Shown here one piece after another: positions 10,956 through 46,055 of a DNA stretch of 54,933 nt. The stretch comes from a virus (taxonomy: Duplodnaviria > Caudoviricetes). A program made the position numbers and the translations under genes. The stretch's first letter is position 1. Every line of letters starts with the position of its first letter. The stretch lies in IMG/VR virus record IMGVR_UViG_3300011440_000025, positions 1 to 54,933 of that record; one strand, given 5' to 3'. The notes below the pieces were generated by a model, which worked only from the letters and a program-made list of their open reading frames with translations, had not been told where the DNA came from and searched no databases.

Positions 10956-11371
10956 AATGTTCTACTAAGAATTGTAAGAACCCCAGTAAGGGTAGAAAGT
11001 TATGCGCATCATGTAGGTCAAGGAAAGCAAGAAAAAAGAATCCCATAAGGTATGCCTATAATTGTCTTAAGAGTAATGCTAAACGGAGAGGCAGAATATT
11101 TGAGCTTACTTTCAAATTCTTTAAAGAGTTCTGTAAGAAAACTAATTATATTAAGCTAAAGGGAATGGGACCGGATGATATGACTATAGATAGGAAGGTC
11201 AGTCCATTAGGATATATAGATGGTAATATAAGAATGATTTCAAGGAGTGCTAACGCTATGAAGGATAGTCAAATTAGAGATACGTTCTGGGAAGACTATT
11301 ATGCGGAGGTGGGATTTACATATGTACCAGAACCTGAGGAGATTATTGATCCAAATAAAGTACCATTCTAA
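10952..11371 (+). CDS. Zn-finger plus HNH-like endonuclease
   Basis: N-terminal CxxxxC...CxxC; TIDR...GYIDGNIRMI...AN.MK. Confidence 0.7.
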   Translation: MKCSTKNCKNPSKGRKLCASCRSRKARKKNPIRYAYNCLKSNAKRRGRIFELTFKFFKEFCKKTNYIKLKGMGPDDMTIDRKVSPLGYIDGNIRMISRSANAMKDSQIRDTFWEDYYAEVGFTYVPEPEEIIDPNKVPF

Positions 11372-12048
11372 TGGCTGTAAAAGTTAAGAGGAAGAAACGT
11401 AAGTTCAAAGGCAAGAGACCACCCAAGGCAACAGATGGTATAGGAGTTAACTATGGTAAGTTTACTATCAAGGGAGATGATAGGAAGTATTTGGCTAATA
11501 TGCATATGGGACCTGGTAAGCCTAAAGCGTTTGAAACTCCAGAGGCTATGGCTCATGCAGCTGAGGATTATTTTAAGTGGTGTAATGATAATCCATGGAT
11601 ACAGAGAGAATGGAAGAATCGTGGAAAGGGTTATGGACTTGTTGAAGTGCCTTTAGGTAGGCCATTCACATGGTCAGGCCTGTGTTCACATGTTGGTGTT
11701 AGTTCAAGGTACTTTGCATCCTTCAGATCTCAGTTCAAGGCTGGACGTCATGAGGATGAAGAATTTGTAACGGTCATTGACAATATTGACGAGATTATCA
11801 AAACACAAAAATTCGAAGGTGCGAGTATTGGAACGTTTAACAGTAACTTAATTGCATACGACCTTGGTTTGAAGAAAGACGTACCTGCTATGTATGGTAA
11901 TTCGGTATCGCTCACAATAAATGTAATAGAGACAGAACATAAAAATTTAGTAGAACAGGTCAAGGCTGAGCTTGAAGCTATAGACGTAGAACATGAAGTA
12001 TTAACAACTAAACAACTTAGTAACGGTAAGGCTAACGGTAAACATTAG
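11371..12048 (+). CDS. terS: Terminase small subunit (P22 gp3-like)
   Basis: GKPKAFETPE...YFKWC..NP, RPFTWSGLC, TQKFEGA..G.FNSNLIA.DLGL. Confidence 0.85.
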   Translation: MAVKVKRKKRKFKGKRPPKATDGIGVNYGKFTIKGDDRKYLANMHMGPGKPKAFETPEAMAHAAEDYFKWCNDNPWIQREWKNRGKGYGLVEVPLGRPFTWSGLCSHVGVSSRYFASFRSQFKAGRHEDEEFVTVIDNIDEIIKTQKFEGASIGTFNSNLIAYDLGLKKDVPAMYGNSVSLTINVIETEHKNLVEQVKAELEAIDVEHEVLTTKQLSNGKANGKH

Positions 12049-12052
12049 TAAT

Positions 12053-12129
12053 GGTCTATGGGGATGCAGGGTGTGTCCGTCTGCCTGTCACGCAGAAGAT
12101 TCAGATGGGTTCGATTCCCATATAGACCG
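12053..12129 (+). tRNA. tRNA-Asp (GTC)
   Basis: Acceptor GGTCTAT/ATAGACC, D stem GGAT/GTCC, anticodon arm TCTGC-CTGTCAC-GCAGA, T arm ATGGG-TTCGATT-CCCAT, discriminator G; no encoded CCA. Confidence 0.88.
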
Positions 12130-12153
12130 CGAAACATTTTAAACAACTATCCA

Positions 12154-12279
12154 ATGGCAAATCAAACAACGGAAAACATTAAGTACACGAAGGTAGTGTG
12201 CAAGAATGAGCTTACGAGACAGGGCAAGAAAATGATGTACCAAGAAAAAATTAAACGTAACACCAATGGCAAAGGATGA
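12154..12279 (+). CDS. Short hypothetical protein
   Basis: ATG downstream of the tRNA with an A-rich leader. Confidence 0.4.
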   Translation: MANQTTENIKYTKVVCKNELTRQGKKMMYQEKIKRNTNGKG

Positions 12280-12532
12280 ATGGTTCTTTATGGAATTTGA
12301 TCCTACCGTTGATATTGTTGACGGTGGTACACGATCTGGCAAGACAGAAAATATGCGTAAGTCAGTTGAAAAGATGAGAGCACAAAGAGAGCAAAGGCTG
12401 GATGATAACATAACTGATTACTATAAGGTACTTGCGATCAAGATGGCACAGAATAAAAGTGATGCACGTATTGTACATAAGTTAACCGAATGGTGGGCTC
12501 ATAGGGATCCAACAAACATTATATCTATATGA
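12266..12532 (+). CDS. Hypothetical protein with a terminase-like Walker A segment
   Basis: IVDGGTRSGKT within an 88 aa ORF. Confidence 0.6.
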   Translation: MAKDEWFFMEFDPTVDIVDGGTRSGKTENMRKSVEKMRAQREQRLDDNITDYYKVLAIKMAQNKSDARIVHKLTEWWAHRDPTNIISI

Positions 12533-12912
12533 AAAACAATGGACCATATCAACCATCTATAGTTATGAATAGTACAGATGATGAACTCGCTGCGCTCAAG
12601 GCAGAGAACGAGCGACTGAAGAAATTCATTAAGGATAATAATGTAACGCTTAAGATTACTGATGGATTAGTAGAAGAGAATGAACAACTTCAACTTGAGA
12701 ATGAGCGACTGAAGGAACTGTATACAACATACGTTCTTCAATGTGAAAAACTAGCGGCCGACAAAGCGGAACTACTTCAACTATTGAGAGATAAACCAAG
12801 GAAACCAATTACGCCACACTTATCTCCTAACGAAAATCCAGATTACTATTTGGATATAGAAAGATGGGAGCAAGAAAAGAATTCACTTCTCTCCAAACAC
12901 GAAACAAAATGA
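12529..12912 (+). CDS. Coiled-coil hypothetical protein
   Basis: ENERLK repeated; heptad pattern. Confidence 0.7.
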   Translation: MKNNGPYQPSIVMNSTDDELAALKAENERLKKFIKDNNVTLKITDGLVEENEQLQLENERLKELYTTYVLQCEKLAADKAELLQLLRDKPRKPITPHLSPNENPDYYLDIERWEQEKNSLLSKHETK

Positions 12913-13094
12913 AAACTATTATTGTATTACTGGCTCTTATCTTTATGTCATGTAGTGGTCTATCATGGCAAACAACAAGCAATGGTTATACGTATTTCAA
13001 TAATCGTGTTAGTGGATGTGAAGCGCCATACCCTAAGACGCCGATGAAGAAAACAAATTATAATACACAAGCATATTATTGGCAAAGGAGGTAA
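12909..13094 (+). CDS. Small putative lipoprotein
   Basis: MKTIIVLLALIFMSC lipobox-like signal; ATGA overlap. Confidence 0.6.
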   Translation: MKTIIVLLALIFMSCSGLSWQTTSNGYTYFNNRVSGCEAPYPKTPMKKTNYNTQAYYWQRR

Positions 13095-13096
13095 TT

Positions 13097-13339
13097 ATGG
13101 TAAATGTTTTTTGTTCCGATACAACGTCTACTCCATATTGGAGATTAAGTGATACAACAGCAGGATCAAGTTGGTATTATAATAATGGTAGCTATGGAAC
13201 ATTGCCTATACCACGACAAAAAAAGAATCCATTTCTATTACGTCCTATAGTAGCGTTGCGTTTATTTTTTAATGATAGACCAAAGCAAAAGATAGAATCA
13301 TTTAAGCGAACATCACAATTAACAATTAGTAGAGTATAA
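13097..13339 (+). CDS. Hypothetical protein
   Basis: ATG 2 nt after the upstream stop. Confidence 0.5.
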   Translation: MVNVFCSDTTSTPYWRLSDTTAGSSWYYNNGSYGTLPIPRQKKNPFLLRPIVALRLFFNDRPKQKIESFKRTSQLTISRV

Positions 13340-13342
13340 ACT

Positions 13343-13552
13343 ATGAAAAAGATAATATTAGTATATGAGTATTTTGATTGGGCGGATAATGGTGGAGGCG
13401 TTCATTATGAAGAGTTTAAGACAGAAGCTGAGTTAGATAAACGTGTAGAAGAAATTTATAAACTGGACAAACACGAATTGATAGCGTGTGGTATATTAGA
13501 TGTGTTTACTTATAAGGTAATTGAAAGGGTAACTAAAATAGAACGGGAATGA
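13343..13552 (+). CDS. Hypothetical protein
   Basis: 69 aa; tight packing. Confidence 0.65.
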   Translation: MKKIILVYEYFDWADNGGGVHYEEFKTEAELDKRVEEIYKLDKHELIACGILDVFTYKVIERVTKIERE

Positions 13553-13878
13553 ATCGTAAACAATTTTTACGCAAGGCAGCAGTGTCTATAGCAGCCGTCG
13601 CACTCGCACCTGTTATAGTAGATGAATTAATGTATAGCCCAACAGTTGGGCATGCTTATAAGTTCAATACATTCTATAAATTAACTAAAGAAGCAATGGA
13701 AGATATAGATGATATGGCAATTATTATGCGAGACTTTATGGACGAGCATTTGTTAAGAGCAGCAAAGCAGAACATAAAATTAATGGAGAAGGATGTTAAG
13801 ATACATATAGGAACAAGCGATGATGATTTTGCAGAAAATTTATTAACAATGGTATTTGAATCAAAAATTAATTTATAA
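13549..13878 (+). CDS. Miniature HK97 capsid-like protein with a Tat-like N-terminus
   Basis: MNRKQFLR plus hydrophobic helix; two segments align by eye with the MCP P-domain segments. Confidence 0.6.
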   Translation: MNRKQFLRKAAVSIAAVALAPVIVDELMYSPTVGHAYKFNTFYKLTKEAMEDIDDMAIIMRDFMDEHLLRAAKQNIKLMEKDVKIHIGTSDDDFAENLLTMVFESKINL

Positions 13879-13881
13879 ACT

Positions 13882-14595
13882 ATGAAACAGCTTAAACTAA
13901 TTTTAATTTTATCCCTATTCACAATGTCGACGTATGCGCAAGTTGGGTATAAGATTGGAGAGGTAACACGATGGTGGACGCCTAAACATATTCAAGTAAC
14001 GGATGGGCTAACGGTCAAATATAAATTATATAATGGATATGATACAGCGTATCGTTATAACATTGGACCGGACCCGGATACATTTGATGTGGTAGTTACA
14101 TTTAAGAAACGATTACCACCAGCACCCAAGCCTGATTTAGTTTCTGTAATGGATGATTATACTATAGTACCGAACCAAACTTACTTGCCTGCTACTAGGT
14201 TAAGTGATAACGTTTATAGTTCAACAGCGTGGGCGCATATGAAAGGACAAACATGGAATGCAAATCATTATGCAAATACCGTATCTTTTGTAGAGGGCAT
14301 ACAGGTAGGAGCATACGTTGAATTAACTTGCGTTTGTTATAAGGTAGAATGGTGGGGTGAGCGTAGAAATAATCATGGTATAGTTTCTATTACAACGGAT
14401 GGTGGAGCAATAGCAAACGTTGATACATACGGACCCAATACAGATAATCCTTCAACATTATTTTGGACAAGTGCAGCTGCACCAGTTAATGGTACGCATA
14501 AATTTCGGGTAACGTATACGGGCACAAAAAATCCTGCGTCTACTTCATTTAGTATTGTGCATGATAAATGGGTTATCTATACTAAGCAGCCATGA
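13882..14595 (+). CDS. Secreted protein with a carbohydrate-binding-like beta-sandwich
   Basis: Signal peptide ending TYA|Q; C-terminal domain similar to the N-terminal domain of 36812-38905. Confidence 0.7.
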   Translation: MKQLKLILILSLFTMSTYAQVGYKIGEVTRWWTPKHIQVTDGLTVKYKLYNGYDTAYRYNIGPDPDTFDVVVTFKKRLPPAPKPDLVSVMDDYTIVPNQTYLPATRLSDNVYSSTAWAHMKGQTWNANHYANTVSFVEGIQVGAYVELTCVCYKVEWWGERRNNHGIVSITTDGGAIANVDTYGPNTDNPSTLFWTSAAAPVNGTHKFRVTYTGTKNPASTSFSIVHDKWVIYTKQP

Positions 14596-14801
14596 GTGAA
14601 ATTAAAAAACACGGATACGATAAGGCTTGCTATAAAGAAATTCACGGATCGAGAATTTACTTATACAAAGGACGTGATCTAATTCATGGTAGGGGATGGT
14701 TCTGCCATTTGTACACAGATTACACAAAGCCATTGTTTGGATTTGGTAAGAATAAATTTGAAGCATTTAGAAATGTTTTTAAGGAGGGTATTGGAAACTA
14801 A
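14592..14801 (+). CDS. Hypothetical protein
   Basis: ATGA overlap; 69 aa. Confidence 0.6.
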   Translation: MSEIKKHGYDKACYKEIHGSRIYLYKGRDLIHGRGWFCHLYTDYTKPLFGFGKNKFEAFRNVFKEGIGN

Positions 14802-14807
14802 GCAACA

Positions 14808-15122
14808 ATGATGGAGTGGAAGAAGGAGAATGGAGCACCGGCATGGAATACGTGGCCAACAGCAACTAACTATGAAGGATGGAAACTAAGGAAGTTACAT
14901 ATGCTGGAGCACAACATTTATATTGTAATAAAATTTAAACGGCGTGAACGTTGGCTAATGTTAAGAGCAGAACTTGGACAAGAATATTTAGAACGTATTA
15001 AACAAATAAACTATGAAGCAACTACTAATTATTATGGGGATGGTTTTATCAATGGCAGCGCATGCACAAACGTCATACGTACCACCAGCGGAAACGGATA
15101 CACCAAAGAAACCGCAGTATAA
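14808..15122 (+). CDS. Hypothetical protein (3' end overlaps the next gene)
   Basis: Fills the gap but overlaps 15013 by 110 nt. Confidence 0.45.
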   Translation: MMEWKKENGAPAWNTWPTATNYEGWKLRKLHMLEHNIYIVIKFKRRERWLMLRAELGQEYLERIKQINYEATTNYYGDGFINGSACTNVIRTTSGNGYTKETAV

Positions 15123-15321
15123 AAAAGTTGTGACCATCGACCTAGCGGAAGTACAAGTATTATTAAATGCATTGCAACGATGGAAAGAATTGGATGTGTA
15201 TGACCCAAGGAAGTCAGATGCTGATAAGGTTATTACTATAAAGGAGCTGGATACTTTTAGTAAGCAGTTGATGGAGAAAATAAAAATAGACAGTGTACTT
15301 GTTACTCCCAAGAAACCATGA
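15013..15321 (+). CDS. Small secreted protein
   Basis: Signal peptide MKQLLIIMGMVLSMAAHA|Q. Confidence 0.7.
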   Translation: MKQLLIIMGMVLSMAAHAQTSYVPPAETDTPKKPQYKKVVTIDLAEVQVLLNALQRWKELDVYDPRKSDADKVITIKELDTFSKQLMEKIKIDSVLVTPKKP

Positions 15322-15374
15322 GATACACATTCAGTATTATATTATTTGTAATGCTTATCTTATTACTAATGTTT

Positions 15375-15405
15375 GGTTGCTCCTAACAAGGGGCAGCCTT
15401 TTTTT
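15375..15405 (+). terminator. Intrinsic terminator
   Basis: ggttgctcct-aaca-aggggcagcc stem followed by T7. Confidence 0.7.
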
Positions 15406-15595: not shown

Positions 15596-15775
15596 ATGTC
15601 ATTACTAATGGTAATTATTATTGTTGCAGTAGTCATTGCATTACTGTATGCGTTCAATAGATTTGTTAATATACCCGGTAAATTAATTATTATCTATGTA
15701 GTAGTTTTTATTTTATGTATATGGTTGCTTGATGTAGCTGGTGTTATTGATTACTTAAGAAGAATTATTTTGTGA
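15596..15775 (+). CDS. Small two-TM membrane protein (not in the ORF track)
   Basis: MSLLMVIIIVAVVIALLYAFNRFVNIPGKLIIIYVVVFILCIWLLDVAG...; GTGA overlap with the terL start. Confidence 0.7.
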   Translation: MSLLMVIIIVAVVIALLYAFNRFVNIPGKLIIIYVVVFILCIWLLDVAGVIDYLRRIIL

Positions 15776-17034
15776 AGCCAACGAAAGTATTCTATGAATT
15801 GTTGAGGGCAGTCAAGGACAGGGTTCCTCTAATAGGCTTTAAGGGTAGTGCCCGTTCTGGTAAGACAGTTGGTATTGTTATGGGTAATGACTTCATAGGT
15901 AATTTCTCCTCGAAGCATAAGAAGATTAGTGTAGTATCGCAATCCTTTCCTCACTTAAGAGATGGTTTTAAATATGAGTATTCGCAGTTCCAAGCACGAG
16001 AGCAAATCCACCGAGAGCATAACAAGAGCGAGCACGAGTTCATAGTAGGCAAGTCTGTAATCAACTACTTCTCATTAGATAAAGATGGAGCCAAGGCAAT
16101 AGGACCTGGACGTGATATACTATATCTTAATGAACCAAATAGAGGAATAACATTTGAAGCGTACAATGATTTAAAAATTCGTACCAAGGATTTGGTTATT
16201 ATGGATTGGAATCCTAGTGGAGAATGGTGGGCAGACGAGCAAAAAATATTCGAAGAACCAGGTGCAAGGATTATACATAGTAAGTGGTATGAGGATAACA
16301 TAGAAAATATAAGTAAGGCGCAGTATAATTATTTTATGCGCGCCAAGAAGTTATCCAAGACGGTGCCTTGGTGGAAGTATTGGTGGGATGTTTATGGAGA
16401 AGGAATAGACGGTGTTCCTGTAGATGAAAGGATCATGCCGTTTTTGTTTCGGGCAAGTAAGGTACCAGACGATGCTATAGAAATTCCCAGCGCTCTAGAC
16501 TTTGGATGGAACCCGTCACCAACTGCCTTCCTTAGAATGTGGATTAAACAAACAGGTGGACTACAAGACGAACTTTATGTGCAGGAAATTGTATACGATA
16601 CTAAGCTAAACATAAATGCTATAGGTGGAAATAATTTAACAGACGTACTGGACCGTAAAGGAATAAATAAAAAACATTTAATTATTGCCGAGTCAGCTGA
16701 TCAGCGTGCTGTTAGAGATTTAAGAATAGCAGGCTATAATATTGTTCGTGTTGATAAGACAGCGGTACAAGTTAGTATAAGACACTTCCATGACTATAAG
16801 ATATTTATTGTTGATGGAGTAAGTGATTCTAGGAATAAGGATAACACATATAAAGAGTTTAATAATTACAGGTATAAGAAAAACAAGAAAGGAGTTATAT
16901 TAGACATACCGGATGAAGGACAGGCAGACCATAGTATTGACGCATGTCGTTATGTACTATTATCCAAAGGCAAGCGGTGGGTACTAAGTAAATCAAAACA
17001 GATACAAGCACTTGAAACTATAACTGCACTATGA
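15772..17034 (+). CDS. terL: Terminase large subunit (PBSX-like)
   Basis: GSARSGKT Walker A, ILYLNE Walker B, DWNPS, nuclease LDFGW and DHSIDACRY. Confidence 0.92.
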   Translation: MKPTKVFYELLRAVKDRVPLIGFKGSARSGKTVGIVMGNDFIGNFSSKHKKISVVSQSFPHLRDGFKYEYSQFQAREQIHREHNKSEHEFIVGKSVINYFSLDKDGAKAIGPGRDILYLNEPNRGITFEAYNDLKIRTKDLVIMDWNPSGEWWADEQKIFEEPGARIIHSKWYEDNIENISKAQYNYFMRAKKLSKTVPWWKYWWDVYGEGIDGVPVDERIMPFLFRASKVPDDAIEIPSALDFGWNPSPTAFLRMWIKQTGGLQDELYVQEIVYDTKLNINAIGGNNLTDVLDRKGINKKHLIIAESADQRAVRDLRIAGYNIVRVDKTAVQVSIRHFHDYKIFIVDGVSDSRNKDNTYKEFNNYRYKKNKKGVILDIPDEGQADHSIDACRYVLLSKGKRWVLSKSKQIQALETITAL

Positions 17035-20060: not shown

Positions 20061-20936
20061 ATGAAACTACAAAGCATACCAAAGTTCAGGACAAAGAATG
20101 AACTACACAAATTCATTAAGGATAACCAGGACACCTTAATGGCAGAGAAGAGAATGCAAACAAAATTTGCAGACTCGTTTTGTTATAGTCCCTCTATACA
20201 AGCAGAAGCTGTAGCACAAACATCCGAAATGTTTAAGGCTATAAGTAACGGTGAGCCCATCTCTACTAAAGGACAACTCAAAACCTTAGTAGTAATTAAC
20301 TCCACTAATATCATAGACTCCTATCTTGATATGCACGTGCCATCTCTATGGAAGAAAAGTTTGATGGAGAACAAGAATATAAAATTCCTACAAGAGCATG
20401 ATATGAAATTCGATAAGATCATTGCTGATAAGGGTGATCTAAAAGCGATGGCAAAGTCTATGAGATGGAGTGAGCTGGGTCTCCCATATAAAGGAGTAAC
20501 AGAAGCACTTGTCTTTGAAGCGCTTGTAAAACAAGAAAGAAATCCTTATATGTACGAGCAGTATAGTAAAGGTAATGTGGATCAGCATAGCGTGGGTATG
20601 CAATACGTTACTATGGTACAGTGTATTGATAATGAAGATAAATACTTTAAAGAGGAAAAAGAAAATTGGGACGCATACATATCCCTTGCTGTGAATCCGG
20701 AAGCAGCAGAAGAGTATGGATTTTTTTATGCAGTAACCCAAGCAAAGGTTATTGAGGGCAGCGCTGTTGTATTAGGTGCCAACAATGCTACGCCTACGTT
20801 GTTAGTAGATGAGATGGAACCAGCCAAGTCTATTCCAGTTAGCACGCAGGAGCCGAAGAAACTCACTCCAATAATTGATTACGATTACCTAATGGGTCAC
20901 ATTAACTTATTTAAAACTAAAACATTTTACGAATGA
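20061..20936 (+). CDS. Prohead maturation protease (HK97-type)
   Basis: LQEH, HSVGMQY, EGSAVVLGAN..TPT; position before the capsid gene. Confidence 0.8.
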   Translation: MKLQSIPKFRTKNELHKFIKDNQDTLMAEKRMQTKFADSFCYSPSIQAEAVAQTSEMFKAISNGEPISTKGQLKTLVVINSTNIIDSYLDMHVPSLWKKSLMENKNIKFLQEHDMKFDKIIADKGDLKAMAKSMRWSELGLPYKGVTEALVFEALVKQERNPYMYEQYSKGNVDQHSVGMQYVTMVQCIDNEDKYFKEEKENWDAYISLAVNPEAAEEYGFFYAVTQAKVIEGSAVVLGANNATPTLLVDEMEPAKSIPVSTQEPKKLTPIIDYDYLMGHINLFKTKTFYE

Positions 20937-22495
20937 AACTTAAAATTGGATTGCGTTTATTTCTCGCCAGCGTGTTCTTTATACTGGGCATGCTGTCTGG
21001 TAACTGGATTGCCGGTGCGATAGGAGTTGTACTCTGTGGTATGTTCTTGCCTACATGGAAGTTCACACCCGGATACTTGAACAGTGGTACCATGAGTGCT
21101 GAAGACGAGCTTAAGCAAATGAAATTGCTTGAGAAGATGAGCGAACAGACAGTTGCTCTTCTTAACAAAGCAACACAAGGTCACATTAAGAAAGAAGATT
21201 TCGACACTGAGATCAAAAAACTCAATGATTCTTACAAGAAGCTAAGTGATGATTCTATTACTGAACTTAAGAAAAGAGTAGATGAGTATGCTAAAGGAAA
21301 TCAAGATGCTATCGATGCAGCTACTAAAGCACAAGAAGAAGTTAAGGAACTGAAACTTGATCTTAAGAAGTTTCAAGAGAAAGCAATTGATCCGTCTAAT
21401 AAAGATAAGGTTACAAGTTTCAGACAAGCACTTAAGGATGCCTTCAATGAAATGAATACTAAGACAGGCGGAGCAGTTATCAAGACTATTAAAGATAGTA
21501 ATGGTGAGCGTCTCTCTATGTCCGAGTATTTTCAGAACGGTGGTAAGCAAGCAGTTACCCCAGTAATGCAGATCAAAACTCTAGTCGATATGCTGGAGTC
21601 CTCTATCGTTCAGAATCAAGTACAGCTTGTTCGTCTTACTGAGCTTGATCCTAATAGAGTTGGTTTCCCTCTGAATCCATACCAACACGCTGTAGCTATT
21701 TTCCCTATTAAGAATATGGCCAAGCCTGCCATGTCAATTCTCGTTGCTTACGAATACGAAAACGGAGCAGGGGCAAAGACGGAAGGTAGTGCGCCTAGCA
21801 AGTCAAGCTTCAAGTTGAAGACGGTAGAATTCAAAGCTTGCGTTATTGCAACTTACTTCACGCTGTCCGAAGAAACGCTTGACGATCTTGAAGAAGTTAT
21901 GGACGAGATTGCAATCATCGCACCTGATAAGATATTGGATAACTTTGACGACAAGGTTTTCCGTACTACTGGAGCAGATGATAGCACTGATATTCTTGGT
22001 CTATTCTCTTCAAGTAAATCAACGGCGTTTGCTTTCAACACTTATATTGGAGAGTTCGAACTTGGTAACTTGATCGACCTTATCCAAACAATGAAGTTGC
22101 AAGCAGAAGGTAATGGATACCGACCTGATATGGTAGGCTTGCATCCACGTGACCTTAACAAACTTGCTGCCGAAAAGAATACACTCTCTGACGACTTGAA
22201 TACTCGTCGGGTATTCTATGATAATCTTGGCCAGCCTACTTTCGTATGTGGTCTTAAGATCGTGTTGAATGCAGAGATCGCTGCGAACACTTGCTTCGTT
22301 GCTGACTCTCGTATGGTTTGGATTGGTCGTAGGAAGGATATGCAGTTGACTATCGGTTATAACGGTACTGACTTTACAGAAGGACAGCGCACGGTTATGA
22401 TTTCGATTCGTCTTGCGTTTGGTGTAAGAGATCCACTAGCGGTTATTTATTCTGCTAGTAATACTCAGAACATCGCTTGGATTACACATTCTTAA
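20933..22495 (+). CDS. Major capsid protein (HK97 fold) with delta-domain coiled coil and hydrophobic N-terminal extension
   Basis: EGSAPSKS, ATYFTLSEETLDD, LHPRD, GxNGTDFTEGQRT...R.AFGV.DP.A. Confidence 0.88.
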   Translation: MKLKIGLRLFLASVFFILGMLSGNWIAGAIGVVLCGMFLPTWKFTPGYLNSGTMSAEDELKQMKLLEKMSEQTVALLNKATQGHIKKEDFDTEIKKLNDSYKKLSDDSITELKKRVDEYAKGNQDAIDAATKAQEEVKELKLDLKKFQEKAIDPSNKDKVTSFRQALKDAFNEMNTKTGGAVIKTIKDSNGERLSMSEYFQNGGKQAVTPVMQIKTLVDMLESSIVQNQVQLVRLTELDPNRVGFPLNPYQHAVAIFPIKNMAKPAMSILVAYEYENGAGAKTEGSAPSKSSFKLKTVEFKACVIATYFTLSEETLDDLEEVMDEIAIIAPDKILDNFDDKVFRTTGADDSTDILGLFSSSKSTAFAFNTYIGEFELGNLIDLIQTMKLQAEGNGYRPDMVGLHPRDLNKLAAEKNTLSDDLNTRRVFYDNLGQPTFVCGLKIVLNAEIAANTCFVADSRMVWIGRRKDMQLTIGYNGTDFTEGQRTVMISIRLAFGVRDPLAVIYSASNTQNIAWITHS

Positions 22496-36811: not shown

Positions 36812-38905
36812 ATGAAAAAACTAATTCTATTATTTTTTATTCTATTTTCTTTTGCGTCTAATGCGCAGATACGTGCTATTGCTACAATGCGTAGCGATAC
36901 GGATGCGCCTACACCACCAACGCCTGAAGATCCATTTGTAATTACGGATGATCATATACTTGGTACGCAAGGTTATCAATTTAACTATGCCGTTGGTACT
37001 TGGATTGGGGGTACAGGAATTGCCGGATGGTATAACACAACTTTATATTATACGGGAACAACTAATGGCTATGTAGAATTTACTTTCAATGGTACTAGCA
37101 TTCATTTGTTTACGGAGAAAAAAGATACGCATGGTATCATGGCCATATCTATTGATGGTGGTGCAGAAACCAATGTTGATTTATATTCTGCTTCACCATT
37201 ACTACAGCAAGATGTTTGGAATAGCGGAACAATATCACAAGCTGTTCATACTGTTAAGATAAGATGTACAGGTACAAAGAATGCAAGTTCATCTAATTAC
37301 TATGCTATTGTAGATTATCTTAAAGTTTATAATCCATTACCAGTAGAAGAGACACCGGACCCTGATCCAACATTTACCCACTACGTTAAAACTACTGGAA
37401 GTAATACGGCAAACAATTGTACTAACTCGGCAGCACCGTGTTTAACAATAGGCTATGCGTTAACGCAAATGAGTTCCGGTCATGTGCTATCTGTTGGACC
37501 TGGAACATTTGTTGAACCAGCTTACTTAGCGCCAACTCCCGGTGAATCTATACATGGAAGTGGAGTAGATGTTACAATAGTAAAACTAAACTCATCATTG
37601 AATTGGGACGTTACTGCTGGAGCAATTCAAGCAAGTAAAACAATGTTCCAATATAATACGGCAGGATCAACGGCACATTTTCTTAGCGATCTTACTATAG
37701 AGGGTAATGGAAAGTTGGTTCATGCTGGAATCTATATAGCGAACGGAAGAAATAATGTTACTGTAGAAGATGTTAAGATAACTAACTTTGATTATTTCGG
37801 AGCATACGTAGCAGCCAATAATATAACTTTTCATAACGTCCAAATAATAAACAGCGCTGAAGCCCATACATCTTTTTCTACTGGTAACTTAATGGTTGGC
37901 GGTCTTAATACTTTTACTTGCGACAATGTAGATATAAGTGATAACCTTGAAGGCTATGGAGTTAAATCTTTTGGTGCAGGGGTTATTATTGAATCAATGC
38001 TCTTTGAAAATAGTGAAGTAAGAGTCGTACCGTATTCACCTTATGGTGGTAGTACTGTTCCAAACATTGCATTTGAATTTGAAAGTGCAAAGCCACGTAA
38101 TTGTATAATAAGAAATAGTTATTTTGATAATAATATTTCAATAGTTCGTGCGATAGGTAGTGTCAATGAAGGGTTTAATACAGTACACATAACAAATAAT
38201 ATAATTGATACAATCACAAAAGGTGCCGGTGGAACTACTTCGATGAATGCGTCTATAGAGTTTTCATCGCATAACGGTGAGATAAGTCATAACCATATTG
38301 TTGGCGGTCGCTTTGCTTATATCGTTAGTTGGAATACTGGTGAAACTACACAACAACAAAATTTAAGAGTGCACCATAATACCGTCTATATGACGGGGCA
38401 TGTAAATTCACCAACAGGATTAGTACGAGCAAGTTATCATGGTTGGAATGGTCTATACATTTATAATAACACCGTTCATATTCCACCAACACAAAATTAT
38501 AATGTTGCTATAGTATATAATGGTGCCAATGGTGTAACCTATAATAGCACAAACGTTCAAGTAAAAAATAATATTATATATGATCAGTCAACAAGCGATG
38601 GTGGAGTAGGTGGTGCAAATGCTATAGTAAGGATGGAAGGTAGCGGTGGAAGTTTCACCTCTTCTAACTTCTCTTATAATTTAATCAACGGTATGTCTAC
38701 TACACTTCCGGGTGGATGGACATCCTCAGATAACTTAACATCATCGCCACAGCTTCAAGGAGGTGGTGGAGTAAATCCATCTCCATTTACTTATACTCCT
38801 TTTTATAAACCAGCACTTGGCTCTCCAGTAATTAATACGGGGATCAATGTTGGGTTACCGTTTACAGGAGCAGCACCAACTAGAGGCAGACTAGAGTATC
38901 CATAA
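36812..38905 (+). CDS. Signal peptide + CBM-like domain + right-handed beta-helix (pectin lyase-like) protein
   Basis: MKKLILLFFILFSFASNA|Q; YVKTTGSN...PCLTIGYA; Asn-rich repeats (HNT, YNNT, KNNI); C-terminal SPVINTG...GAAPTRGRLEY. Confidence 0.78.
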   Translation: MKKLILLFFILFSFASNAQIRAIATMRSDTDAPTPPTPEDPFVITDDHILGTQGYQFNYAVGTWIGGTGIAGWYNTTLYYTGTTNGYVEFTFNGTSIHLFTEKKDTHGIMAISIDGGAETNVDLYSASPLLQQDVWNSGTISQAVHTVKIRCTGTKNASSSNYYAIVDYLKVYNPLPVEETPDPDPTFTHYVKTTGSNTANNCTNSAAPCLTIGYALTQMSSGHVLSVGPGTFVEPAYLAPTPGESIHGSGVDVTIVKLNSSLNWDVTAGAIQASKTMFQYNTAGSTAHFLSDLTIEGNGKLVHAGIYIANGRNNVTVEDVKITNFDYFGAYVAANNITFHNVQIINSAEAHTSFSTGNLMVGGLNTFTCDNVDISDNLEGYGVKSFGAGVIIESMLFENSEVRVVPYSPYGGSTVPNIAFEFESAKPRNCIIRNSYFDNNISIVRAIGSVNEGFNTVHITNNIIDTITKGAGGTTSMNASIEFSSHNGEISHNHIVGGRFAYIVSWNTGETTQQQNLRVHHNTVYMTGHVNSPTGLVRASYHGWNGLYIYNNTVHIPPTQNYNVAIVYNGANGVTYNSTNVQVKNNIIYDQSTSDGGVGGANAIVRMEGSGGSFTSSNFSYNLINGMSTTLPGGWTSSDNLTSSPQLQGGGGVNPSPFTYTPFYKPALGSPVINTGINVGLPFTGAAPTRGRLEYP

Positions 38906-44091: not shown

Positions 44092-44397
44092 ATGAAATCG
44101 CCGATGTTCTTACCTGATGACTTTGATAAAATTTATAACCACCATAGAGATATAACAGAAGTTTTTAAATGGTCTTTACTCTTATTACTTGGACTTGTAA
44201 ATATTGAAACATTACTATTATGGGTACGATTTATTGCTGGCATACTTTCTATTCCAGCTGGTGTATTACTTATCTTAAGGTTATTTTGGGAAGCAAGGGT
44301 AAAGCGTAGGGAACACGAACTAAAGAAAAAAGAACTGGAGAAAAAGGATCAAGATATGTGGAGAGCAATTGAAGAAAAAGAAAACGGAACTAATTAA
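44092..44397 (+). CDS. Putative holin
   Basis: Two TM segments, highly charged C-terminus, directly upstream of the lysin. Confidence 0.6.
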   Translation: MKSPMFLPDDFDKIYNHHRDITEVFKWSLLLLLGLVNIETLLLWVRFIAGILSIPAGVLLILRLFWEARVKRREHELKKKELEKKDQDMWRAIEEKENGTN

Positions 44398-44828
44398 TGG
44401 AAAAATTTTTATTAGAAAGAGTTTACTTGCCAACAGAAACGTTAGGTAGTATCTATGCACCGGATAAAGAAATTGTTTGTAAGACAATGGAGTTACCTTG
44501 GAAAGAAAATAGAAGTAATATAAGTTGTATACCTGAAGGTGAACACTTAGTTAGGAAGATGGTACCGGATCAGTTCCGCAAGTATCCATACTTTAGATTC
44601 GTAAAAGTTGAAGGCAGGGGTATAAATAAATTTTATAACATGAGCACTATACTTATCCATCCGGCAACGTTCGTCCATCATCTTAAAGGATGCATAGGAG
44701 TAGGATCAAAGCATACCGATATTAATAAAGATGGGATACCAGATATCGTTGATTCAAAACTTACTCTTAAGCATATGACAGATACAATGCCTGACGAGTT
44801 TATACTTGATATAAAAAGAAAAGAATGA
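44397..44828 (+). CDS. DUF5675-family putative endolysin
   Basis: TMELPW..N..NISCIPEG, ILIHPA......GCIGVG. Confidence 0.8.
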   Translation: MEKFLLERVYLPTETLGSIYAPDKEIVCKTMELPWKENRSNISCIPEGEHLVRKMVPDQFRKYPYFRFVKVEGRGINKFYNMSTILIHPATFVHHLKGCIGVGSKHTDINKDGIPDIVDSKLTLKHMTDTMPDEFILDIKRKE

Positions 44829-45394
44829 AAAATGTATTCCCTTGGATGATTGTTGCAGCACTATTATTATGGGTAGGATATGAATACTATGATAAAAAAT
44901 CTCCTATTGAAGTTACGCAACATATAGATTCTGTTAGAGCATTAAAAGAAATCCAACGCGTATCAGCAGTACGAATTGATTCTATAGATCGCGCATATAG
45001 AATTAAAATTGAAAAGGATAGCATAGCTAGTGTCAAGTATGAAGCACGTATTAAATATTGGACAGCAAAGGCAAAGCAAATAAAAATAAAGGTAGATACT
45101 ATTATAAAATATCCAGACCTTGATACGTTGCTTCATATTTATGATTCTATAATCTATGTTCAAGCACAGCGTATACATAATTTAAATTTAGAAAAAGGAT
45201 TTATAATTGAAAGCTATGAAGCAAAAATAAAAGAGAAAGATGAAATTATTAAAACCGGATTTGAAATCAATTCCCATATGGATGCCGTTGTTGCAGAACT
45301 CAATAAAGATTTGGCTAAGCAAAAGAAATATAAAATTGGCGGCACAATAGTAGGAGGTGTACTAGGATTTTTTGTTGGTCGTGGAACTAAATAA
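44825..45394 (+). CDS. Spanin-like protein
   Basis: N-terminal TM, coiled coil, C-terminal hydrophobic Gly-rich segment; follows the lysin. Confidence 0.6.
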   Translation: MKNVFPWMIVAALLLWVGYEYYDKKSPIEVTQHIDSVRALKEIQRVSAVRIDSIDRAYRIKIEKDSIASVKYEARIKYWTAKAKQIKIKVDTIIKYPDLDTLLHIYDSIIYVQAQRIHNLNLEKGFIIESYEAKIKEKDEIIKTGFEINSHMDAVVAELNKDLAKQKKYKIGGTIVGGVLGFFVGRGTK

Positions 45395-45402
45395 AATACT
45401 AT

Positions 45403-45648
45403 ATGAAAAAATTTATGGAGATGCTTAATATGCGCAACCTAATTATCGCAAGTATGATTTGTCTAGGAGTATCTATGTTGGATGCAATCTTTGTTAGCGA
45501 CATTGCGTGGGATGGATTCAAGAACTTAACTTGGTGGGGAAAATTATTCGTGTTACCAGCTCTCGTTACTTTAGTATACATCTTTGGCTATGTGTTTCTT
45601 TATGGTATGATCTACCTTAACTTAAAGAAATGGTTTATAAAATCCTAA
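45403..45648 (+). CDS. Two-TM membrane protein
   Basis: Hydrophobicity pattern. Confidence 0.6.
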   Translation: MKKFMEMLNMRNLIIASMICLGVSMLDAIFVSDIAWDGFKNLTWWGKLFVLPALVTLVYIFGYVFLYGMIYLNLKKWFIKS

Positions 45649-46055
45649 CACTGCTGCCGACACTTATTGAATCTTGGCTAGATCGTAAAGGAGAAAAGAA
45701 GCAAGGAAAAATAAAGGACACTATCTGGTTAACAGTTGGTAGTGTCCTTTATATTATGGTTACTTGGAAAATTTTTAATCAGAATCCATTTATCATACTT
45801 GCTTATATCCTTATGTGGCGAGTAACCTTGTTTGATTACCTGACGAATTTTATGTTGAAGAAGTTTAGCGATGGGCATAAGCAAATTAATATTTGGAAGT
45901 ATACTGGTACGACTACATTTTGGTGGGACCAGCTAACGAGTAAGATAGATTGGAGATGGAGATTGATTTTTAGAATAGTGATCCTTGCCGCAGGTGTGAG
46001 TCATCTGATACTTCCTTTCCCATACGATATATATGGAATACATATAAACCATTAA
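45630..46055 (+). CDS. Membrane protein
   Basis: About three TM segments; FDY..N...W.Y.G. Confidence 0.6.
   Translation: MVYKILTLLPTLIESWLDRKGEKKQGKIKDTIWLTVGSVLYIMVTWKIFNQNPFIILAYILMWRVTLFDYLTNFMLKKFSDGHKQINIWKYTGTTTFWWDQLTSKIDWRWRLIFRIVILAAGVSHLILPFPYDIYGIHINH

Follow-up and report, generated by a model that had tools for sequence, protein, structure and literature searches.

The DNA analysed here (the window) is the complete 54,933-bp virus record IMGVR_UViG_3300011440_000025 (Duplodnaviria; Caudoviricetes), and our subject is ORF109, an open reading frame (ORF) at positions 13549..13878 of the + strand which reads as 109 amino acid residues plus a stop codon. ORF109 is located in a 3.7-kb island of small unannotatable genes flanked by the genes for the small terminase subunit (terS, 11371-12048; PHROG E=1.1e-30, Pfam GP3_package E=4.1e-20) and the large terminase subunit (terL, 15772-17034). 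The ATG of ORF109 overlaps the stop codon of a preceding 69-residue ORF (13343..13552, +) within an ATGA, and this stop/start overlap makes translational coupling of the two likely; the following gene, ORF237, begins at 13882, three bases past the ORF109 stop codon. An earlier note, made from the sequence alone, had described ORF109 as a miniature mimic of the phage's own major capsid protein (MCP) with a twin-arginine translocation (Tat)-like or membrane N-terminus. As set out below, the C-terminal ~75 residues of ORF109 are very probably homologous, if distantly, to the P-domain of HK97-fold capsid proteins, carried behind a leader that resembles a membrane anchor.

The resident MCP (20933..22495, +; 520 residues) is an HK97-fold protein by its matches to Pfam Phage_capsid (E=6.3e-16, 59 bits) and to the PHROG major head protein family (E=3.9e-20). 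Two separate stretches of ORF109 align with it, as had been seen by eye: segment 1, residues 35-56 (13651..13716, +), corresponds to MCP residues 301-322 (21833-21898, +), with 5/22 residues identical and 15/22 positive; and segment 2, residues 81-109 (13789..13875, +), corresponds to MCP residues 468-496 (22334-22420, +), with 8/29 identical and 16/29 positive. The segments are separated by 145 residues in the MCP but only 24 in ORF109, so that ~121 intervening MCP residues are missing, and both matches and the gap between them are present just as the earlier note had them. The MCP frame itself opens (20933-21100) with some 50 hydrophobic residues resembling two membrane-type helices, located before the delta domain; this extension is alignable in 21 of 56 aligned homologues, and the other 35 begin at the delta domain.

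Judged against the resident MCP alone, the likeness is marginal, with p about 0.01-0.03. In BLASTP, segment 2 reaches E=0.033 and segment 1 E=15; ORF109 is outscored by 19 of 2000 shuffles against a hidden Markov model (HMM) of 56 MCP sequences, and by 26 of 1000 shuffles against an HMM of the 21 long-form sequences; and in single-sequence hhalign comparisons the MCP (18.7) is undistinguished from other window proteins (19.4 and 18.9). The shuffles and the single-sequence hhalign comparison speak for a chance likeness, in which ORF109 would be a small membrane ORFan of the ordinary kind, with an acidic amphipathic helix and a single hairpin that happen to resemble MCP motifs. A chained local score that leaves the long gap free reaches 80, compared with 40.8 +/- 7.2 for shuffles, and is attained by none of 300 shuffles and none of 142 real 265-residue windows.

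ORF109 belongs to a small family. A search for homologues of near-equal length accepted 3 proteins out of 9 candidates, and the collections searched contain just three relatives: a 99% identical cluster mate; P0002 (75% identical, 109 residues); and P0003 (73% identical, 124 residues), which has a 15-residue insert after the leader. Related loci were found in IMG/VR (2 loci from 63 pattern matches) and among metagenome contigs (2/510), and none among genome contigs (0/101). All four related contigs keep the order 69-residue ORF, ORF109, 237-residue signal-peptide protein, and ORF109 is intact and syntenic in each (L001, L002/L005, and L004), with its start overlap and length conserved across 3 distinct sequences. 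The ratio of nonsynonymous to synonymous substitutions (dN/dS, by the Nei-Gojobori method) is 0.23 and 0.27 for ORF109 and 0.08-0.10 for its two neighbours; within ORF109, leader codons 1-27 have a dN of 0.034-0.069 and a dS of 0.37-0.57, and the remaining codons a dN of 0.156-0.219. ORF109 is therefore real and under purifying selection, and the conservation together with dN/dS indicates a translated, fairly fast-evolving gene. A duplicated MCP gene in decay might well be as short as ORF109 and might represent only part of the MCP, but we regard this origin as almost certainly wrong: neither a broken frame nor relaxed selection is seen in any of the four related contigs, and the added leader is strongly conserved. 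The earlier statement that ORF109 is not the product of decay is thus borne out, on the very comparison of intact homologs and dN/dS that was proposed with it.

The homology itself is carried by comparisons of families. We compared the ORF109 family alignment (A1) with 56 resident-type MCPs (A2), and with family B, an independent profile of 66 distinct MCPs from IMG/VR (loci L014-L093) of the type of L012, an MCP that came from searching 201 genomes, all of one bacterial family, with Pfam (3 of the genomes had matches); the HK97 gp5 sequence was taken from GenBank. Specifically, i) the two divergent relatives, neither of which was before the author of the earlier note, score 11.5 and 9.2 bits against the resident-type MCP HMM, compared with 4.6 bits for ORF109 of the window, and each shows two domains at the same HMM positions, the opposite of what would be expected of a chance likeness picked by eye; ii) when A1 is aligned by hhalign with the 56 resident-type MCPs, L012, and HK97 gp5, segments 1 and 2 are the two best alignments and collinear, with P=8.1e-4 and 1.5e-3 compared with 0.39 for the third alignment (before broadening of the profile with L012 and HK97 gp5 the values were 1.9e-3 and 4.4e-2), none of 120 column shuffles reaches either score (maximum 23.9, compared with 30.1 and 28.5), and the collinear pair sums to 58.6 compared with a shuffle maximum of 38.6; iii) the family-B HMM (hmmsearch --max) scores the three family members at 12.6, 11.6, and 11.5 bits, with domains at homologous places and scores reached by none of 2000 shuffles of each member, and hhalign of segment 2 with family B gives P=4.1e-4; iv) in a null set made up of 420 real chunks of 109 residues and the reversal of each, non-MCP chunks score no more than 7.7 bits, the reversed ORF109 family scores about 0 bits, and everything above 9 bits is an MCP fragment (L009 and L011, 9.6-10.1 bits; the resident MCP, 10.3-23.6 bits) or a member of the ORF109 family, which tops all ~800 non-MCP real and reversed chunks; v) in the reverse direction, which gave the cleanest result, an HMM built from the mature parts of the 3 mini-proteins places 121 of 122 MCPs (66/66 of family B and 55/56 of the resident type) above all 210 decoys, with scores of 11.2-21.6 bits for family B (nominal P=9.6e-9 for the best MCP, at 21.6 bits), 9.5 bits for the resident MCP, and 6.1 bits for the best decoy, although MCPs of one family are non-independent observations; and vi) segment 1 aligns at the homologous place in A2, family B, and L012, while BLASTP aligns segment 2 with residues 340-368 of HK97 gp5 (E=0.005), the same gp5 stretch that is matched by segment 2 of the resident MCP.

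A number of results weigh against the homology and have to be set beside these. The hhalign probabilities are low (24%, 17%, 35%, and 2%) and never exceed 35%. Reversal of the ORF109 alignment gives an hhalign score of 28.1 against family B, compared with 31.6 for the true top alignment; since the maximum over 150 column shuffles was 24.5, shuffles alone evidently underrate what chance can produce with acidic amphipathic helices. The remaining two reversed controls scored 18.3 and 18.0. Three of the six divergent PF05065 MCP lineages tested (L009, L011, and L013) gave no signal, and family B was expanded only after L012 had looked the best of the six, which imposes a roughly 6-fold selection factor on its p-values. 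Pfam Phage_capsid matches none of the 3 family members at E<=10; a profile search of the PDB returned 6 unrelated chains and no capsid protein, some of the chains equalling the MCP on single segments; a search of 1.84 billion representatives recovered only the cluster of ORF109 itself and P0004, and no MCP; and a search for longer homologues yielded 2505 candidates, none at E<=10 and no MCP among them. P0004, a repeated kinase-like protein, was judged a spurious homologue, and an attempt to read the 15-residue insert of P0003 as the upstream MCP strand failed, since 595 of 2000 shuffles equal it at the expected place. In a phage collection there was no DNA match and no MCP match, and ORF109 had a single chance match at E=4.

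Structure prediction likewise lends the homology no help. Two AlphaFold2 runs, one with the full-length family alignment and one with the mature parts, gave all-helical, strandless models of low confidence (mean predicted local distance difference test score, pLDDT, 51.7 and 55.1), in which the helix spans residues 47-80 (equivalent to 36-69 of the mature part of P0003, pLDDT 63-76). Foldseek with the second model found nothing in the PDB, and in BFVD it listed 4 matches at E<=10, of which none reached E<=0.001 and none was a capsid protein, so that with hhalign at 35% or below, the HHpred, Foldseek, and AlphaFold type of check that the earlier note had envisaged did not bear out its reading. 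Residues 57-80 have a hydrophobic moment of 0.96 at the helical angle compared with 0.29 at the strand angle, and residues 82-88 a strand-type moment of 3.30 compared with 0.70. A complex prediction of MCP residues 195-520 with ORF109 residues 30-109 scored 0.00 without controls, and is evidence in neither direction. Scans of ORF109 with Pfam, PHROGs, and NCBIfam gave as best matches phrog_21126 (unknown function, E=0.004) and FIN1 (E=0.19), besides a few chance NCBIfam matches, and a protein atlas contained no neighbour of ORF109 that scored 0.85 or more, nor any for residues 30-109.

Chance likeness thus has in its favour the marginal comparison with the resident MCP, the unrelated PDB chains, the reversed control, the want of a Pfam match, and the helical models. 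What it leaves unexplained is the collinear recurrence of two segments at corresponding positions of both MCP families and, in part, of HK97 gp5, the failure of shuffles to reach the family-B scores, the separation of MCPs from real, reversed, and decoy sequences in both directions of search, and the higher scores of the relatives compared with the protein from which the likeness was first noticed. We therefore consider chance quite unlikely.

If ORF109 is a capsid protein derivative, which part of the capsid protein does it represent? Glu104 (codon 13858..13860, +), which is invariant in 3/3 family members, aligns with E363 of HK97 gp5, a residue that we take to belong to the covalent chainmail site (K169-N356, E363). 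Position 97 (codon 13837..13839, +), Asn in 2/3 family members and Asp in P0002, aligns with N356, which according to PMC5701804 is the chainmail acceptor, located in the P-loop of a P-domain composed of the spine helix and a three-stranded sheet. Segment 1 aligns through MAFFT with about residues 182-203 of gp5, where it would cover an MCP strand and the start of the spine helix; residues 57-80 (13717..13788, +), the rest of the long predicted helix (47-80), may correspond to the remainder of the spine helix; and segment 2, within which residues 82-107 align with gp5 340-366 by both BLASTP and HMMER, would be the counterpart of the P-loop hairpin. On the most parsimonious reading ORF109 would keep three elements, the strand, the spine helix, and the P-loop hairpin; it would have lost the A-domain and the G-loop region, and its leader would stand where the N-arm and E-loop had been. 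The deletion would then coincide with domain boundaries. A stand-alone mini P-domain, as the earlier note put it, is indeed the best reading of the sequence evidence, some 75 residues being related to the MCP stretches that flank the A-domain. The part of the MCP before segment 1 is absent, so that ORF109 does not amount to a complete HK97 fold.

The clean excision from the phage's own MCP that had been suggested is not supported by the alignments. In the two segments no more than 23-28% of residues are identical with those of the resident MCP, and segment 2 scores 9.2-10.8 bits against family B but 2.0-4.1 bits against the resident family (HMMER), which argues against a recent excision from the resident MCP; by these scores ORF109 is no farther from HK97-type MCPs than from the resident one. 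The Asn and Glu at the N356 and E363 positions are invariant in all 66 family-B MCPs, whereas the resident MCP family has an invariant Gly484 at the N356 position and this phage has Ser491 at the E363 position, so that the resident MCP is presumably not chainmail-forming. ORF109 has neither an E-loop nor a Lys donor.

The leader is the most conserved part of the protein. It begins with a basic n-region (residues 1-9, 13549..13575, +; net charge +4) and continues with an Ala-rich hydrophobic core (residues 10-24, 13576..13620, +; mean Kyte-Doolittle value 2.5 over 15 residues, 7/15 of them small) that is predicted to be a signal anchor, the core being followed by Asp-Glu; residues 25-109 carry a net charge of -7. 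The 3 family members do not differ at residues 1-11, which include the motif N-R-K-Q-F-L-R-K with its single Arg-Lys, and [VI]-D-E is conserved after the hydrophobic stretch in all 3. The sole A-x-A (A-L-A) precedes a Pro, leaving no usable cleavage site, and the leader accordingly has the sequence features of a type II signal anchor, namely a basic n-region, one hydrophobic helix, no peptidase site, and an acidic C-terminal flank. Tat signals share with ORF109 a basic n-region with x-F-L-[RK]-K, an Ala-rich h-region, and an acidic stretch, but have the consensus S/T-R-R-x-F-L-K with a twin arginine; ORF109 has Arg-Lys in its place and only the A-x-A that precedes Pro, and Tat-signal HMMs (PF10518 and NCBIfam) gave no match at E<=10, although HMMER filters may hide weak matches. 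Of the Tat-like or membrane N-terminus described earlier, the membrane-anchor-like part therefore stands as a prediction, and the Tat part is not supported. Protein-atlas neighbours with Tat signals score 0.80-0.81, below the lead threshold. TatC is present in G001, a metagenome-assembled genome (MAG) that contains a relative of the resident MCP, but the host link is weak, and a search of genomes G001, G186, and G191 with the 30-residue leader found nothing. The leader does not align with the N-terminus of the long-form MCPs.

From these features ORF109 is probably oriented N-in/C-out, with the domain outside the cytoplasm. Its setting is an island whose proteins bear export signals, and the gene directly after it, ORF237, encodes a signal peptide as well. 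No export-signal model matched the leader, the topology being read from the pattern of charge and hydrophobicity, and this has to be counted against what follows. We propose that ORF109 is a functional accessory gene of an uncultured freshwater-sediment phage, and that its product is a small, bitopic, two-part protein. At the N-terminus there would be the highly conserved signal anchor, in which four basic residues precede a 15-residue Ala-rich helix and Asp-Glu; the rest would be an acidic ~80-residue domain, the remote HK97 P-domain homologue, which may retain the strand-helix-hairpin fold and would face the periplasm at the inner membrane or be set free there. The exapted capsid domain would then have its site of action in the envelope, not the cytoplasm, whether in phage exclusion, masking, or lysis timing, and perhaps by P-loop-type self-association. 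We give an even chance to this explanation as a whole, that is, to an exapted, membrane-anchored capsid P-domain outside the cytoplasm, and the case for an envelope-level role is in our judgement evenly balanced too.

CapRel and Lit are cytoplasmic capsid-sensing defences, triggered by MCPs or MCP peptides, and an MCP fragment could in principle engage such sensors; hence the suggestion in the earlier note of a decoy for capsid-sensing immunity. That suggestion is weakened by the +4 charge before the hydrophobic core and the acidic sequence after it, an N-in/C-out pattern which would place the domain outside the cytoplasm and argues against a cytoplasmic decoy. The decoy is one form of a broader alternative, a cytoplasm-facing or membrane-tethered capsid mimic whose leader serves only as a tether and whose domain meets capsid proteins or sensors, whether as a cap or poison for the lattice of competing HK97-type phages, a modulator of the phage's own assembly at the membrane, or a decoy for capsid-triggered defences. 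A domain built for lattice contacts would most simply still bind capsid proteins; the Asn and Glu that ORF109 shares with the 66 family-B MCPs are absent from the resident MCP; the L012 genome and the MAG with a relative of the resident MCP come from the same bacterial family; and the N-terminal hydrophobic hairpin of the resident MCP, present in 21/56 homologues, suggests membrane-associated assembly. This alternative nevertheless requires that the predicted topology be wrong, since the domain would otherwise lie across the membrane from capsids and sensors; moreover, Asn97 is replaced by Asp in P0002, and the neighbours of ORF109 bear export signals. On balance we think it unlikely. A bolder version, a membrane-tethered "half capsid protein" with the P-domain only and with the chainmail Asn and neighbouring Glu that the resident MCP lacks, which as a dead-end P-loop partner to E-loops would trap or cap the capsid proteins of rival HK97-type phages or of prophages in the same hosts, or else a capsid-sensing host system, has in our view only a slender chance of being right.

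An anchor of this kind also recalls regulators of lysis timing. T4 RI-type antiholins are small proteins with a single N-terminal anchor and a periplasmic domain, as is predicted for ORF109, and ORF109 could be an antiholin or holin of sorts, with an anchor resembling a signal-anchor-release sequence and the capsid-derived domain serving as a periplasmic interaction module. Its size, its single N-terminal anchor with 7/15 small residues, and its acidic, presumably periplasmic domain would suit such a role; on the other hand, the anchor is fairly hydrophobic (mean 2.5), the library scans gave no family match, and ORF109 is distant from the candidate lysis genes, assigned by eye at ~44.4-46.1 kb. 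A lysis regulator is accordingly very unlikely. The possible lysis cassette, also recognized by eye (44397-46055), would consist of a 143-residue enzyme-like protein, a 189-residue protein that is hydrophobic near either end and coiled-coil in between, and a 141-residue multi-helix membrane protein.

Finally, the conserved [VI]-D-E could be read differently, as the site at which a prohead protease removes the leader, leaving a mini P-domain in or on the shell as a minor component of procapsid or virion. P-domain homology, conservation of [VI]-D-E in all 3 members, and a location in the late operon on the packaging side would all be in keeping with a virion component, but ORF109 is located outside the protease-MCP interval that is the usual site of decoration and scaffold genes, its leader resembles a membrane anchor, and the protease in this phage is only weakly like S78 (E=0.08), the idea of cleavage deriving from the cleavage motif of T4-type prohead proteases. 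We hold this to be highly improbable.

How does the proposed membrane-anchored P-domain compare with known systems? With HK97-fold MCPs (PF05065; HK97 gp5 and family B), ORF109 shares two collinear stretches and the Asn and Glu at the N356 and E363 positions, but those proteins are about 385-520 residues long, compared with the 109 of ORF109, which is without the delta domain, N-arm, E-loop, and A-domain; ORF109 differs further in its membrane-anchor-like leader, its sub-threshold Pfam score, and a fold that is putative. The closest described parallel is the A-domain encapsulins (encapsulin Family 4, PF08967, DUF1884), which according to PMC8346489 are ~100-residue proteins consisting of a single HK97-fold domain, the rest having been lost, and are cellular proteins of Euryarchaeota and a few Bacteroidetes encoded next to enzymes. 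The likeness lies in a stand-alone HK97-fold domain of ~100 residues; A-domain encapsulins keep the A-domain and have no leader, whereas ORF109 would keep the complementary P-domain, and is phage-encoded and predicted to be membrane-anchored. Consistent with this difference, PF08967 had no match in the Pfam scans of the ORF109 family, and the aligned MCP parts are outside the A-domain.

Satellites that interfere with the capsids of other phages offer a parallel in concept. Ccm of the cos-type Staphylococcus aureus pathogenicity islands (cos-SaPI) is reportedly a capsid homologue. TcaP, a protein of the phage-inducible chromosomal island-like element (PLE), remodels the coat protein that the PLE hijacks (PMC10002752). 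The shared concept is a small or homologous protein acting on the lattice of another phage; the satellite proteins are cytoplasmic and are either full-length MCP homologues or external scaffolds, whereas ORF109 is phage-encoded, represents a one-domain fragment, and is predicted to be outside the cytoplasm. Our search of the literature found no described phage-encoded MCP-fragment decoy or P-domain-only protein (where the word "decoy" did occur, it belonged to mass spectrometry), and A-domain encapsulins are the only described precedent found for a one-domain derivative of the HK97 fold.

Tailed phages, herpesviruses, and encapsulins all build their shells with the HK97 fold, and for this universal fold the only stand-alone single-domain derivatives known are those of the A-domain, in the Family 4 encapsulins. 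A P-domain-only ORF109, if true, would be the complementary case, and would mean that pieces of capsid proteins can be recruited for jobs other than building shells. A domain that still recognized capsid proteins would offer a compact natural means of interfering with capsid assembly or capsid sensing; one that did not would be a clean example of fold exaptation.

The gene downstream of ORF109 bears on this point. ORF237 (13882..14595, +) encodes a 237-residue protein with a signal peptide, is syntenic in the relatives, and has a dN/dS of 0.08-0.10, as does the 69-residue ORF upstream of ORF109, which is syntenic in all related contigs. The C-terminal ~95 residues of ORF237 match the N-terminal domain of a 697-residue tail-module protein (36812..38905) by BLASTP (E=1e-10, 31/98 identical), and the tail-module protein likewise bears a signal peptide. 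By this match ORF237 is a genuine stand-alone paralogue of the tail-module N-terminal domain, so that the island already holds one verified stand-alone domain of a structural module with a signal peptide, and the position of ORF109 beside ORF237 hints that the terS-terL island gathers "excerpts" of structural proteins. A further candidate of this sort, an 88-residue ORF (12266-12532) in which a terminase-like Walker A fragment had been seen, is not supported as a terL fragment, since BLASTP finds no likeness to the large terminase (best E=0.47).

DNA nearly identical to positions 12900-15400 of the window is present in 23 public runs with at least half of the sampled words, labelled as freshwater sediment or groundwater; the runs are dated 2017-2018 and possibly come from one campaign, and 5 of them are possible sources. 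In one RNA-library run the sole contig, of 226 nt, falls inside ORF237 and leaves ORF109 uncovered, which is uninformative on ORF109 transcription. At the start of the island, directly after terS, there is a tRNA-Asp (GTC) at 12053-12130. Farther along but still upstream of ORF109, positions 12909-13094 contain a short lipoprotein-like ORF with a hydrophobic leader ending in Cys; in the related contig L004 (204-719) the lipoprotein-like sequence is joined in frame to the preceding coiled-coil ORF, giving a protein of 171 residues.

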